DNA of 58,880 bases from Tolypothrix carrinoi HA7290-LM1. GTDB lineage: Bacteria; Cyanobacteriota; Cyanobacteriia; Cyanobacteriales; Nostocaceae. Each line of letters starts with the position of its first letter. Within the stretch, counting starts at the first letter, position 1. The translations under genes were made by a program, and so were the position numbers. Below, piece after piece: positions 52,092 to 58,880 of this stretch. The DNA lies in NCBI GenBank assembly GCA_019358935.1, contig JAHHIK010000049.1, positions 1-58,880 on the forward strand, read 5' to 3'. The notes below the pieces were generated by a model, which had not been told where the DNA came from, ran no database searches, and saw only the letters and a program-made list of their open reading frames with translations.

Positions 52092-52373
52092 ATGACCGCA
52101 AAAGAACAATTAATTAGAGAAATTGATCGAGCACCAGAATTTTTGGTTGAAGAAGTATTAAATTTTTTACTTTTCATCAAAATTAGACTGAAGCAAAGAG
52201 TTGATGACAGTCAAATTGTCGAATCAACCCAAAATGTATCCTCTCAATCTTTTTTAGATTTGATTGATGAGATTAGTCTACAAATTCCTCAAGAAGAATG
52301 GGCAAAACTGCCAAGCGATATGTCAAAAAACTTGGATTACTATCTATACGGTTCACCGAAAAGTGAAGAATGA
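52092..52373 (+). CDS. Putative antitoxin
   Basis: LPSDMSKNLDYYLYG tail; overlaps the toxin start (ATGA). Confidence 0.7.
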   Translation: MTAKEQLIREIDRAPEFLVEEVLNFLLFIKIRLKQRVDDSQIVESTQNVSSQSFLDLIDEISLQIPQEEWAKLPSDMSKNLDYYLYGSPKSEE

Positions 52374-52790
52374 AAAAAGTATTTGCTGACACAGGATACT
52401 GGATTGCTTTACTTAATCCCAGTGATGAACTGCATCAAAAAGCTAGAATAATTACTGCATTTCTCATGCCTTCTTTAGAGATAATAACTAGTGAGATGAT
52501 ATAAACTTACGCTACTAAATGCCTTTTCTAAGCAAGGTGCATTATTCAGACGAACAGCAGTTAATTTGATTAATCAATCCTTCGGTAATCCTAATATTGA
52601 AATTGTTCCTCAAACCAGTGATTTGTTTATCAGCGCACTTGAATTGTACAATCAACGTTTAGATCAAGCTTGGAGCCATACAGATTGTGCCTCATTCCAA
52701 ATCATGCACAAGCTTGGTATTCAAGAAGCACTTGCTTATGACAAACATTTTGAACAAGCTGGTTTCGTAGCTTTGCTGCGTCAAGATTAA
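52370..52790 (+). pseudogene. PIN-domain toxin, stop plus frameshift near 52502
   Basis: MKKVFADTGYWIALL...SEMI* then WSHTDCASF..YDKHFEQAGF in a different frame. Confidence 0.8.
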
Positions 52791-54522: not shown

Positions 54523-54830
54523 TGACCAAAAAGGGTGTGGGGTGTGGGGGAGCCAGTGCCGTGCGTATTTTCCCCCCGTTGAGGCATCTGGCGTTGTGGG
54601 GTGTGGGGTTGCAGGTTTAGAACGTTCTCCCACACCCAACAGCGTCCTTGCCCCTATTTTTAAATATGGAAAATATTAAAGAAGATTTTACCAGACACGT
54701 AGTGGGATAAAATCAGCGCGGAGCCGGAGCCGCGGAGCCTCCGGTCCATGTTTGAAACCCCTGATTTTAATTATGGGGTTCCTACACCCTACCCCCTACC
54801 CCCTACACCCTATACCCTCTTCATGGTGAT
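54523..54830. mobile_element. MITE-like element (GGGTGTG/TACACCC ends) with nested small repeats
   Basis: Inverted heptamer ends; the internal GGAGCCAGTGCCGTGCG..TTGAGGCATCTGGCGT unit recurs near 58820. Confidence 0.6.
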
Positions 54831-55212
54831 TTTTGTAGCGACATTGTTTTTATGTCATCAACTGAAAAAATGCCCAAACTAATTTTTGCATACAAGTTAA
54901 CAGATTTAACGACTATCTAGAATCGCAATATTAGACCAAACCACCGCAAGAATAGATAAGACAGGCGCGATCGCTTTCGTTGTAACCTCATCTAAACTGT
55001 TGATGCCAAAGCGCGATCGCGAATCATGCTAAGAAACAACCCAAACTCATTGCTTGATCGTCCGAGTTTTGATCTTGACTATTAGACATCTCCGAAAATG
55101 AACTATGCGTTGTCCACAACCCTTGTAGAGACGCGACCGATCGCGTCTCTACATTGTTTTCCGGAGATGTCTATTAAAGTTTTAAGCTTCATCTTTCACG
55201 CAAGGAAAAACT

Positions 55213-55550
55213 ATGACTGCAAAACCTACTGTATTAGTTGTTGGTTCTACCGGGATGCTCGGTGCTAAAATTATTTCTGCCCTGCTCGACAAAAAAACTA
55301 CCAACGTCAAAGCAATGGTGCGCCCTAACAGCGACAGCGATACAGAGAATCGCGAAAAAATTGAACAGATGAAAGCGAAGGGTGCAACAATTGTAGAAGG
55401 CGACTTGATGAAACCGGAAACACTCCTTCAAGTTTGTGAAGGTGTAGACGTGGTTGTTTCTGCCGTGGGCAACAATCAAGTAACTGTACCAGGGCAGAAA
55501 AATTTAATTGATGCAGCTAAACAGCAAGGTGTCAAGCGGTTTATTCCTTC
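55213..55550 (+). pseudogene. 5' part of an NmrA/isoflavone-reductase-like oxidoreductase, interrupted after ...KRFIPS
   Basis: VLVVGSTGMLG Rossmann motif, GVDVVVSAVG, NLIDAAK..GVKRFIPS then an abrupt stop; the family normally continues (D/E)(Y/F) to about 300 aa. Confidence 0.88.
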
Positions 55551-56758
55551 ACTCTAGATAAATCATTTTGACTAACTCTTTAAATAGTAGCTTTGCAGAA
55601 GAAGGCGGATATGCGCGATCGCACTAATCGCACTCCTCGACCGGCAGCTTTTTCAGCGTCCAACTGAGCTTTAAGCGTTGCACCGATCTCATTATCAAGG
55701 CGGCAGCGCTTAATCTCAATGCGAGTGAAAACCCACTTGCCTCTGGCGATACGGCACAAATCAGAACCACCGACAATTTTAATTTTACTTTTATCACCAG
55801 ACGCTTCCAGGGACGGTGCAAGCTAAGCGAGACTTCTGAAACCGGCGTAACGAAAGGTAGCGTTTAGTTGGCTTTCCAGACTTTCGACTAAGAGCGAATC
55901 CTGACTTCTGGCTTACCGTCAGCGCCAAAGTAATTTTCCACCGGGTAAATTTGGGAGAGGATGATTGACTCAAGCCGTATGCCGAAACCAAAAGCCTTAA
56001 AAACCTGGCGGTAAGCGGTGAACTTTAAGTCAGTCAAAAGTTGCTGTAATTCCACTTCAATGCTGTATTCCTCTCGCTGCAAGTCACACAACCGTTTTGC
56101 GATCTGGTCGAACCGTGCTAGTGATGCCCAATCCGACAGAGCGATCGCGCAAACCGTCATATCGCTTGGATGAGCGTTCGCCACACAACCATCCCCACAG
56201 CAGCGGTACATCACCATCAATTGTCCGGCGGGATTTTATATGCGCTACCTCTCTTAACTGCCACGCCAAGTCAGTAGCGCAACCGATTGATGATTGGCGA
56301 CTGTACCCGGTTGAGGTGAGCAAGCCGCAGCACCAGTTCCCGGATGCGGGTTGTGGTGAAGTCCCGAATCTGGACAAAGCGCTTGGGGGAATCGCAGTAA
56401 TCAAAGTAGTAGCACGCCAGGGCTAGAGCATCGGCATCATCATCTTTATCCGGTAAACTTAACTGGTGTTCCCGGTAATTTCTCAACTCTTTGTGTCCCA
56501 CGAGCCTGATTTCGATTTCGGCACGGGCTAAATGTGTACCCCTTCATACGCGAGTAATTTACACCAGTCGGTTCCATAATTGCAATATCCGGTTTTAGCG
56601 CCAACAGTGCTTTTATGCCCTCACTGTTGGCGCTAAACAACATAAACGGACATTCGGGCGGAAAATTGACGTGGTTCCGAGGGCTTATTTTCAAGCAAGC
56701 AGGCGGAAACTGAGGACTTGCTGACATCAAGTCCCAAAATTCTTTTATTTTGTTGCAT
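55549..56758 (-). pseudogene. IS110-family (DEDD/Piv-like) recombinase with several frameshifts and stops
   Basis: Reconstructed across frames: MQQNKRILGLDVSK, IMEPTG, KDDDADA (DEDD tetrad), APSLEASGD (catalytic Ser motif), C-terminus AKLLFKELVKMIYLE* ending at TGA 55551-55549. Confidence 0.9.
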
Positions 56759-56796
56759 TGGGTGTGGTTGTTGGTTATTAATTAGTCCCGTATAAA

Positions 56797-56965
56797 AGCC
56801 TATGAATCACCCAAAGGCGCAAATAGCCTAGTTCACTCTCAAGGCTGTGTCGGAGTTGGCGCTCTGACACTACGAGGGGAAACTGTAGAAAGTGCAGTAA
56901 CCGAGCTTATGAAGGAATAAAAGCGATTATGCTTGATTCTGACTAAAAACCCTAAGTTACTGCAC
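56797..56965 (-). ncRNA. Putative bridge RNA: target-binding loop 56892-56965, donor-binding loop 56797-56846 (5' end may extend to about 57050)
   Basis: Two parallel internal loops, [guide-GAA]-N2-hairpin-[guide-UUC]-AU; exact 12-nt and 8-nt matches to the junction at 55540-55555; upstream of and co-directional with the recombinase. Confidence 0.82.
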
Positions 56966-57043
56966 GTTATCACAGGCGCTCTTATTTGGACGATTAGCCG
57001 CGACTCCCCAACGTGGGGGAGCAAGAATCTAAAGAATCTGAAT

Positions 57044-57081
57044 AAAGCCGTCCCCGCCTTTTGCGGTAGGGACGGCTTTTT
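57044..57081. terminator. Strong hairpin, possibly a bidirectional terminator
   Basis: AAAGCCGTCCC...GGGACGGCTTTTT. Confidence 0.65.
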
Positions 57082-57142
57082 AATGGGTGCGGTCACTGTG
57101 AGGAGTGCGATCGCACTCCAAAGCAATATATCAACCAAAATT

Positions 57143-57394
57143 ATGGAACCAAGCCAGGAGATAGCATTTATTGAAGCTGCCAAGGTCAGCAAACTAGCCC
57201 AAGCAACCGAACAAGCGGCAGTTGAGCTAACTGAATTTATCGATTTCGTCCAGTATCACAACCCGGAAGTCGATAGAGCCACCGCTACAATGACGACTGC
57301 GTTTTGCTTGCACAATCTGCGTACTGCTTTTCTAGAGGAACCAGAGATGATGCAGGAGTTGAGCGCGATCGCACGCTCGTTTTCTCAAGGATAA
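57143..57394 (+). CDS. Small hypothetical cargo protein
   Basis: 83-aa helical ORF from MEPSQEIA, followed by a hairpin at 57401-57440. Confidence 0.6.
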   Translation: MEPSQEIAFIEAAKVSKLAQATEQAAVELTEFIDFVQYHNPEVDRATATMTTAFCLHNLRTAFLEEPEMMQELSAIARSFSQG

Positions 57395-57539
57395 AAAATT
57401 AAAAAGCCTCCCAGAACTTTAGCAAAGACGGGCGGCTTTTATCAAGTTGATTGAACTACAGGTACTTACGTATCTGCTTAATCGGTTCACAAACTTCCAA
57501 TCATTTCAATCAAACTTTTGTAATTATGCTTTTGTAATT

Positions 57540-58542
57540 ATGCCACAAAATCAATTAATCTCTTTCCCCAATCGTGAAAATAAAGTTTCAGTAAAGTACA
57601 ACAAACCTCATTGCATTATCCCTATATCAGACATTACATGGGTAACGCAACAAGTAAAAGCAGTTCAAACATTGTGGAATGAATGTTGGGTATCAGACCC
57701 ATTTGGCAGTCGATGGGAAAAGCTGTCAACTAACCTCACAGAAACAGCATTTAGGTTAGCTAGAAAGATTTTATACACAGCTGGACTATTTGAATTTAAG
57801 CGCGATACCTGCATACATGACAGTCGAAAAACAGCAGGCTGGTTAGTAATTAATCTTCATGGCGCTAGAAGAATTAAAGACTTTTGGCATCGCGAAGAAG
57901 CTGAAATTATATCCGACACAAACACGGCGATATCCGACATAAACACGGCGATATCCGACACAAACACGGCGATATCCGACACAAACACGGCGATATCCGA
58001 CACAAACACGGCGATATCCGACACAAAATCAACGGTGTTTCTGTCCGAAACCCCTGAATTATCAAGGCATAAAGAGCCTCTCAGTAGTATTTCAATATCT
58101 TCTTCCGGAACTTCTTTGAGAAGTTCCTGAAGAAGAAGTACCCACTCGGCACGAGCTTTTAGAGAAAGCTCGTGCTCGTGGGGGAAAGATAGGTGAGAAG
58201 TTAGCCAAAATTCTAGAAACTTGCTTTAAACACGCAGACGGGTGGACTCCAACTATGAAACAGACCATTTCTGACATCTTTCATCACAGATACAGATGGA
58301 AAATTGACGACAGGCGGCTTGAATTAGTCTCTAACCTTGACGAATTCTCTCTACAAACATTTCTCTCCAGATTTAAATTTGTCTGGTCAGACCAGGGTAT
58401 GAGCGCCCCTAGGACTTTTGATCGGGCAATGCGTGACTTAACAGAAAACCGCTTTATTGGAGGAGATATCAAACTGCAAATACAAAGTTTTCTGCTTGAC
58501 TTATCGCAACCTCAAGAAAAGCAAGTGGCTTTTAATAGCTGA
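57540..58542 (+). pseudogene. Possible replication-initiator-like protein, frameshifted near 58090-58130
   Basis: wHTH-like N-terminus (LTETAFRLARKILYTAGLFEF), repeat linker, open frame continuing into the 58255-58542 ORF; function inferred from architecture only. Confidence 0.45.
57909..58027 (+). repeat. About 5.6 x 21-bp tandem repeat ATATCCGACACAAACACGGCG
   Basis: Units at 57909, 57930, 57951, 57972, 57993 and 58014 (partial). Confidence 0.95.
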
Positions 58543-58610
58543 TTCTGCCTCGTAAAGAAAAAACCGCCACTCGCAATGGCGGCTGATTAAAAAACCTCGA
58601 ATTATAAATT

Positions 58611-58880
58611 ATGCATCAACCAAAGCAATTGCAGCTGTTTGACTTTCCTACTCAGCCTCAAATTAAGGTAATTCACGATCCTTACTGGGATGAACTGGAG
58701 GCACAAGCCGATGATATTGTTGAACAGGCATTTTTAAGCATCAATGCCGAGGATGAAATTTTCGACGTTGACCAAGCCCCGAGTCTCGCGGGGTGTGGAA
58801 GAAGGGTGTGGGGTGTGGGGGAGCCAGTGCCGTGCGGGGGTGGAGTCCTGTTGAGGCATCTGGCGTTGTCGGGTGTGGAA
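58611..58880 (+). CDS. Hypothetical cargo protein, hit by a repeat element near 58790 and cut by the window edge
   Basis: MHQPKQLQLFDF...HDPYWDELE, then GGGTGTGG repeats. Confidence 0.5.
   Translation, partial: MHQPKQLQLFDFPTQPQIKVIHDPYWDELEAQADDIVEQAFLSINAEDEIFDVDQAPSLAGCGRRVWGVGEPVPCGGGVLLRHLALSGVE

Follow-up and report, generated by a model that had tools for sequence, protein, structure and literature searches.

In IS621, an insertion sequence (IS) of the IS110 family about 1.3 kb long, a recombinase with DEDD and Tnp domains acts with a two-loop bridge RNA encoded 5' of its gene, the guides lie around a shared core, and insertion leaves no target duplication; transcription of the RNA relies on a junction promoter, which is created where the two ends meet in the circle (Durrant et al. 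2024, PMC11208160). IS110-family genes are also thought to integrate and excise the Neisseria filamentous phage Nf and the Thermus inoviruses Zuza8, Zuza27 and phiOH16 (PMC11437467), and expanded, cargo-bearing IS110 loci of up to 100 kb have been described (Hu et al., bioRxiv 10.64898/2026.08.14.744561). As these integrases and large cargo loci are in print, an IS110 recombinase serving as a virus integrase is not a categorically new idea. Here we analysed a stretch of 58,880 nucleotides from the cyanobacterium Tolypothrix carrinoi HA7290-LM1 (the window), which is the whole of contig C49 in a 7.96-Mb assembly (genome G000) and in which an IS110-family gene adjoins an interrupted nmrA-family gene. 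Comparison with related genomes indicated that the window very probably holds the recombinase end of a decayed copy, at least 11.2 kb long, of a conserved cyanobacterial family of integrative elements in which a bridge recombinase would carry out integration. The original prediction, drawn from the letters of the window, had proposed an IS110 recombinase as the integrase of a larger element; this reading was supported, while the window copy proved inactive, the idea had already been published for phages and large IS110 loci, and the hammerhead and the conserved family had gone unnoticed.

The family resembles IS621 in the recombinase domains, in the position of the two-loop RNA, in the guides around a shared core and in the lack of target duplication. 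It differs in length (8-19 kb), in the cargo lying between the right-donor end and the RNA, which leaves the junction promoter distant, in a hammerhead fold 5' of the RNA, and in a GAA (or AA) core instead of CT. Each copy has guides of its own, whereas the IS621 copies considered in that paper all use one host repeat. Like Nf and the Thermus inoviruses, the elements are virus-sized and carry an IS110-family gene at one end. In those phages the opposite end carries an endonuclease gene, and the sections of the source covered describe neither a guide RNA nor retargeting (PMC11437467); unlike them, the present elements gave no match to Zot/pI or a rolling-circle Rep, some members encode primase-helicases, and sister forms exist with a tyrosine integrase or as plasmids. 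As in the expanded loci of Hu et al. (10.64898/2026.08.14.744561), IS110 boundaries enclose many kb, whole units are mobile below 20 kb, and guides match flanks. The cargo in those loci is described as heterogeneous, resistance- or plasmid-derived and accreted in place, in contrast to the single conserved family here, and the main text holds no match for cyanobacter, Nostoc or ribozyme.

Type I prophage hammerheads (Perreault et al. 2011, PMC3088659) share the CUGANGA/GAAA/UH core, the three stems and the location in a mobile element near a recombinase; unlike those, the fold found here adjoins a recombinase guide RNA, and the covered text of that paper holds no match for IS110, transposase or cyanobacter. 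The tRNA-integrated excision elements of Anabaena variabilis (10.64898/2025.12.09.693284) are likewise cyanobacterial, integrative and of unknown function, and have a low-frequency circle; unlike the present elements, they use a tyrosine integrase and a tRNA site. The COMPASS preprint (10.64898/2026.10.21.760802) deals with long-guide bridge RNAs (including that of a 395-aa recombinase) and, as a separate subject, with a divergent hammerhead; the part covered holds no match for cyanobacter. The literature searched, which included few subscription journals, contained no description of the cyanobacterial family or of a natural hammerhead joined to a bridge RNA, and these two parts are new with respect to it; the NCBI model NF051857 labels the recombinase a plain IS110 transposase. 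The elements appear to form an undescribed family of virus-like units of 8-19 kb, widespread in cyanobacteria and with a different target for each copy. In many families of cyanobacteria, a bridge recombinase would thereby serve one conserved kind of element as its dedicated integrase.

Junctions, recombinase and bridge RNA of the window copy

The features that define the element and its link to a second contig, C120, were as follows.

55213..55550, + strand: 5' part of the interrupted nmrA-family gene (Pfam PF05368)
55548..55550, + strand: shared core TTC (GAA on the element strand)
55551..55556, - strand: left-donor half site, which reads TAGAGT on the element strand; the stop codon of the recombinase gene overlaps with the core
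55549..56758, - strand: IS110-family bridge recombinase pseudogene
56798..56977, - strand: bridge RNA of about 180 nt, within a folded stretch at 56770-57020 (z = -3.1)
56937-56945, - strand: left-target guide of the bridge RNA
56911-56921, - strand: right-target guide of the bridge RNA
56832-56839, - strand: left-donor guide of the bridge RNA
56803-56812, - strand: right-donor guide of the bridge RNA
58611..58780, + strand: 5' portion of a conserved cargo gene of cluster 3, with a DPYWD motif; its 3' portion at the start of C120 links the contigs
58781..58880, no strand: dispersed repeat with 21 matches in the genome, at which the assembly breaks; the element goes on in C120:1-7863

The nmrA gene was truncated at 55550, and an uninterrupted homologue with 98% identity in the same-genus genome G005 gave the empty site as TTTATTCC-TTC-TGACTAC. 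As had been noted from the letters, a single junction lies in the window. The search for the far junction proposed at that time located both the rest of nmrA and the far element end at position 7864 of C120, with the junction letters CATGTGGGGA-TTC-TGACTAC. Rejoining the nmrA halves from C49 and C120 restored an open frame of 301 aa, which was identical to the G005 gene at 293 of the 301 positions. The core TTC was common to both junctions and the empty site, without target duplication; its invariant part may be just AA. The end of C49 and the start of C120 were also the two halves of one conserved cargo gene, and an unpaired half was seen on no other contig, so that two split genes tie the contigs together. 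Because the far junction and the split cargo gene lie on C120, the element measures at least 11,193 bp (C49 and C120 parts), by a join that was inferred and not read through.

The far end read GTGGGGA-TTC, not TTGGGTGA-TTC, and the predicted donor end was thus wrong beyond GAATC. The circle junction would likewise be AGAGT-GAA-TCCCCACA in place of the one proposed, the donor guide pairing with one bulged U. The sequence TTGGGTGATTC was rejected as a far junction, as what it matches near these elements is the guide of the RNA itself. On C120 (locus L017:7799 and 7865), and also on C45, two tandem donor-like ends GAATCCCCA (also given as GGGGATTC) were present 66 bp apart, which suggests that the end was lengthened by a second recombination event. 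The small tyrosine recombinase encoded in C120:1-7863 was broken, as was an IS nested in this segment, which also contained structural-like genes and the far end; the nested IS (L017:1678-3582) has 88-bp inverted repeats and a DUF772 transposase fragment. The HIP1 sites reported at 55615, 56141, 57107 and 57365 were present, and HIP1 density was 0.80 per kb in the element versus 0.99 in the genome. Regulated restoration of nmrA by excision was considered and not retained: the rejoined frame is open, yet the 10 synonymous and 8 non-synonymous codon differences fit a recent insertion equally.

The recombinase gene of the window showed 81% nucleotide identity to an intact copy on contig C12 and carried seven frame-breaking changes. 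The damage is real, because an independent contig from a public run carries the same letters, with one difference and no gap against window 54600-57390. In the intact C12 recombinase (399 aa), the motifs of the DEDD RuvC-like domain and of the Tnp domain with its catalytic serine were located; it matched PF01548 (DEDD_Tnp_IS110) at 31.5 bits (cut-off 29) and NF051857 at 570 bits (cut-off 180), and PF02371 passed its cut-off in the relative L073 but not in C12. The window copy could be mobilised only by a recombinase acting in trans, for example that of C12. In the window (55603-56661) and in the G000 copies on C30, C98, C127, C145, C147 and C178, most frameshifts consisted of a 4-6-nt block swapped for a block one base longer. 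Identical replacements occurred in different dead copies, three being common to the window and C30 and one of them also present in C147; they may result from gene conversion among dead copies or from a targeted mutagenic process.

In the target loop of the window RNA, 9 nt correspond to the left target and 11 nt to the right target, and the empty nmrA site is matched over 17 bp in total. The donor loop spells AGAGTGAA and, with one U bulged, the reverse complement of GAATCCCCA. A two-loop RNA whose guides fit both target and donor is therefore located 5' of the recombinase gene. In the mechanism we propose, the two ends would meet in a circular form to give the donor AGAGT-GAA-TCCCCA, which the complex of recombinase and RNA would recombine with the site spelled by the target loop.

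Guides and target sites in the family

Recombinase matches were detected in 133 of 301 genomes of the same family. Forty loci were fetched from the 150 matches listed, long contigs being favoured and each locus being limited to 20 kb, and their ends were called from donor motifs alone before guides and flanks were compared. The target loop was parsed in 31 loci and gave 31 different guide pairs. The right-target guide matched its flank at five of five positions in 21 of 27 loci, compared with a mean of 0.87 loci and a maximum of 6 over 10,000 shuffles; for the left-target guide this was the case in 20 of 24 (shuffled mean 1.06). In genome G000, the target loops of two further RNAs predicted far junctions on contigs C47 and C59.

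Both ends were found in 19 of the 40 loci, 7.8-17.1 kb apart (median 14.3 kb), and in none of the 31 loci did a matching far end lie 3 kb or less from the recombinase. The survey of cyanobacterial genomes suggested alongside the original prediction thus revealed large relatives whose target loops match their own flanks. With at least 11.2 kb here and 7.8-17.1 kb in 19 relatives, the size departs from that of a compact element (about 1.3-2.5 kb, the recombinase as the sole gene), and no pair of ends within about 1.7 kb, as had been envisaged for a compact IS, was seen near the 31 recombinases with a readable RNA. Nor did the locus resolve into a compact IS nested with cargo that has its own integrase: the sole other recombinase (about 193 aa) lies mid-cargo, and both ends are junctions specified by the RNA. 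In other families, a guide-matched far end, judged by eye, was located 7.0-17.8 kb upstream in 11 of 20 loci. The other nine were not callable, two of them being on short contigs; among them, L144 might be a short element, given a donor-like motif 1.3 kb upstream.

Retargeting through a few RNA bases, which had been anticipated from the window, was supported by the sister elements L066 and L068 of one genome. They were 97.6-98.9% identical over the two longest blocks, and their RNAs differed at two right-target guide bases, each being nearer to its own flank. L135 and L136 have one guide at two sites, one of them with a mismatch. Point changes in the target loop would thus be likely to direct lineages to new sites, allowing many related elements to coexist in a genome. 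The family also offers a natural library of guides and sites, from which targeting rules, mismatch tolerance and guide change in nature can be read.

A preferred target gene was rejected, as just six of the 19 rebuilt sites, several with short right flanks, lay in open reading frames (ORFs) of 100 aa or more, including an ABC permease and a RecQ-domain gene. The gene at one rebuilt site is, judging from its translation, presumably cas1, with the element (L060:1-500, genome G083) about 22 codons from its 3' end.

Several side observations were made among these loci. In genome G075, full donor junctions TAGAGT-GAA-TCCCC were present inside the chromosome (L088:1425, L089:16290 and L085:11792), as expected for head-to-tail or nested insertions, and L063 and L088 have 7.3 kb in common at 99.3% identity. 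Variable small ORFs lie between the recombinase stop and the donor end in L048, L057, L058, L077, L079, L080 and L084; some of these loci contain repeated copies of the recombinase 3' end, resembling a short cassette array. The bridge RNA region of L141 (genome G599) has apparently two tandem target-loop-like repeats before the donor loop. L093-L104 represent a second recombinase subclade (about 460 aa, 41-47% identity) with another target-loop scaffold and the same hammerhead, donor ends and cargo.

Cargo genes and exchange of integration modules

Comparison of gene clusters in 21 delimited elements identified an ordered gene set common to them, running from the far end through structural-like genes, a small tyrosine recombinase, replication and regulator genes, the hammerhead, the bridge RNA and the IS110 recombinase to the donor end. 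The tyrosine recombinase of about 193 aa was found mid-element in 20 of the 21, with a Pfam PF00589 match and catalytic-type motifs. A large coiled-coil or proline-rich protein of 500 aa or more and a protein of about 105 aa were each encoded in 19 elements, and a protein of about 280 aa in 12; for the last, clustering at the 50% level gave 630 relatives, among them those of Gloeothece, Limnothrix and Symploca. Fibre-like cargo genes gave weak matches to tail or virion families in PHROGs, and small single-membrane proteins were located at the far end. Replication genes were interchangeable between elements (including a DnaB-N/AAA_25 helicase), some members carried P4/satellite-like primase-helicases (DUF3854 with VapE or D5; AAA_25), and collagen, GDSL and F5/8 domains occurred near the cargo block.

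No relaxase or type IV secretion gene was present among 43 proteins scanned. The P-loop ATPase found in 8 of the 21 elements had no Zot match among the families listed, and no Rep match was obtained among the cluster representatives. The model of cluster 5 (predicted local distance difference test, pLDDT, 87.5) gave a best Z of 5.9 to a 2H-phosphoesterase fold, which is under the trust level of the tool, and that of cluster 4 (pLDDT 93) a best Z of 2.9; neither model had a viral match at E <= 0.001. The ESM Atlas returned no usable match for two cargo proteins, and sequence searches of the PDB nothing significant.

Of 401 genomes across the class, 65 contained the cargo marker and 53 the recombinase family; in 16 genomes, from nine families, the two were no more than 15 kb apart. 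In ten well-assembled genomes selected for bearing the recombinase, it was located near 20 of 26 cargo loci, and IS110-type ends were still present in three of five cargo loci without a nearby recombinase. For comparison, 20 cargo loci free of the IS110 recombinase were fetched. A tyrosine integrase or its fragment adjoined the cargo in eight of them (one by a custom profile only), and four had as their boundaries a tRNA gene and, 9.9-16.3 kb away, a 32-45-bp repeat of the tRNA 3' end. The small central recombinase was found in one of the 20 and in none of the eight tyrosine-integrase loci. The cargo block was also present together with par genes (ParAB) on two circular plasmids of Nostocales HT-58-2, CP019637.1 and CP019638.1, both typed as non-mobilizable; one of them, the free plasmid pHT582-1, carries the small central tyrosine recombinase as well.

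Since the same cargo set is also found inserted in tRNA genes, with tyrosine integrases alongside, and on two plasmids with ParAB, the IS110 unit is, as judged from these comparisons, a swappable integration module of the cargo family. The original view of a larger element that integrates by an RNA-programmed recombinase instead of a tyrosine integrase was therefore supported, with the addition that the same cargo elsewhere uses a tyrosine integrase and a tRNA site. In a tree of the protein of about 280 aa, the 17 IS110-type rows required eight label changes, at least five of which were forced by well-supported branches, and a single IS110-type clade was rejected (p-AU 5e-5); long branches and mosaic exchange of this one gene limit what the tree tells about the order of events.

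The hammerhead fold and the nature of the elements

Directly 5' of the bridge RNA, intact relatives carry the type I hammerhead core, with CUGANGA, stem II, GAAA, stem III, UH and a short stem I in this order and with stems II and III closed; the window copy has lost the catalytic 5' half. A strict scan detected the fold in 23 of 45 regions versus 3 of 2000 random windows, and a relaxed, core-only scan in 36 of 40 loci versus 12 of 2000 controls. Positions 1-5 of stems II and III were paired in 46-50 of 50 distinct sequences by several pair types, indicating compensatory change; the base of stem III and two stem I pairs were set by the search pattern and have no evidential value. The fold precedes 9 of 20 distant-family recombinases. 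As 6-17 kb of cargo lie between the RNA and the circle junction, a junction promoter of the IS621 type cannot make the RNA. The hammerhead would cut the bridge RNA from a read-through transcript, a role that we consider likely given an unusable junction promoter, and it probably substitutes for the junction promoter of compact IS110s. It would represent an answer to guide-RNA production away from that promoter. For bridge editing it points to a design with one self-processing transcript, and a clade evolved with 10-17 kb of cargo provides a ready set of orthologues.

Several results weigh against this account of the family and its mechanism. The join of C49 and C120 spans an unassembled repeat, and the 40 loci of the survey were of our own choosing. 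Flanks matched the guides imperfectly in 6 of 27 near and 4 of 24 far cases, and the copy on C98 has the same guides as that on C127 with a near flank that does not match. Three short internally deleted derivatives in G000 (525, 1,407 and 1,765 bp) retain both ends. No free circle was seen, nor a readable circle joint in the contigs of the public run. Rfam gave no hammerhead match at E <= 0.5 in 12 loci, its only match being a chance one to poplar-1, and stem I was short and mispaired in some copies. As for a viral nature, Pfam, PHROGs and NCBIfam revealed no capsid, terminase, portal, packaging ATPase, relaxase or rolling-circle Rep, and scans of IMG/VR with recombinase or cargo proteins and searches of phage collections, which reach close relatives only, yielded no match.

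That a compact IS110 simply expanded in place, accreting unrelated mobile DNA between its right-donor end and the bridge RNA, appears very unlikely. Such stepwise growth in situ with one-sided donor matches is documented in the covered part of 10.64898/2026.08.14.744561, and the element studied here does contain a nested IS and the two tandem far ends 66 bp apart; against this, the same ordered cargo module is found at 31 unrelated sites and in nine families, a coherent unit without IS110 exists, and both the conserved synteny and the lack of any compact intact member among the loci found disfavour accretion. It is still less credible that integration or excision is really the task of the small central tyrosine recombinase, with the IS110 unit as a passenger, a view that could draw on the presence of this recombinase in 20 of 21 elements, its catalytic-type motifs and its PF00589 match. 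This enzyme is encoded kilobases from both ends, has about 193 aa without N-terminal binding domains and is also found on a free plasmid, while the ends share no att repeat longer than 3 nt and vary together with the RNA guides. It may instead resolve dimers of a replicating circle, to which we give an even chance. A hammerhead that merely trims the upstream cargo mRNA, with no role for the bridge RNA, is unlikely to a lesser degree. Hammerheads of prophage transcripts flank genes and lie near integrases, according to the covered text of PMC3088659, and about half of the distant-family loci have no motif; the predicted cut, however, falls at a short, conserved distance before the basal stem of the RNA, whatever the upstream gene.

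What the cargo does is more evenly balanced. The elements could well be cryptic integrative plasmids or satellites that have no particle of their own and spread by a helper or along the filament, a reading to which we assign somewhat less than an even chance and which is compatible with integration by the bridge recombinase. The lack of a virion hallmark in the searches above, the deposition of free forms as plasmids and the P4/satellite-like primase-helicases of some members favour it. The constant co-oriented block, the swappable integrase, ParAB and replication modules, the variable fibre-like genes and the small membrane proteins at the terminus, on the other hand, correspond to the organisation of temperate viruses. 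The elements are probably proviruses, their status as viruses is a matter of about even odds, and the cargo may equally well build a particle as not. Tentatively, the conserved bridge-recombinase family could comprise small temperate cyanobacterial viruses with novel virion folds that swap their lysogeny module among a ParAB plasmid form, a tRNA-directed tyrosine integrase and a ribozyme-released bridge RNA, point changes in the guide giving each lineage a different chromosomal site; this would amount to a natural and evolving form of RNA-programmed lysogeny. In either case the cargo marks out an element that is common and uncharacterised and may represent a new group of temperate cyanobacterial viruses.

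The remaining features of the window copy lie beyond the bridge RNA.

56998..57021, - strand: hammerhead remnant with stem III, the GUC cleavage triplet and the 3' strand of stem I
57021..57040, no strand: deletion junction, at which about 3.8-4.1 kb of the sister copies C127 and C98 are missing
57143..57394, + strand: 83-aa ORF between two GC-rich hairpins, common to the C127, C98 and C86 copies, with no family match
57540..58542, + strand: putative replication gene with in-frame 21-bp repeats at 57909-58030, split into two ORFs compared with a 337-aa relative

The block deleted at 57021..57040 comprises, in C127 and C98, small regulators, an ATPase or membrane-protein block and the 5' half of the hammerhead. 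The window copy is also without most of the large cargo protein, and a remnant of cluster 5 in its 526-aa protein matched too weakly to be claimed (probability 1.3%). The rep-like gene with 21-bp repeats pointed out at the beginning does contain five full repeats, starting at 57909-57993; the label 'rep-like' found no support in Pfam or NCBIfam, and the putative replication function is suggested by gene position and the internal repeats. Elsewhere in the window, the region 52370-52790 holds what we take to be a probable antitoxin-toxin pair, composed of a 93-aa ORF at 52092 and a PIN-like gene frameshifted near 52504.

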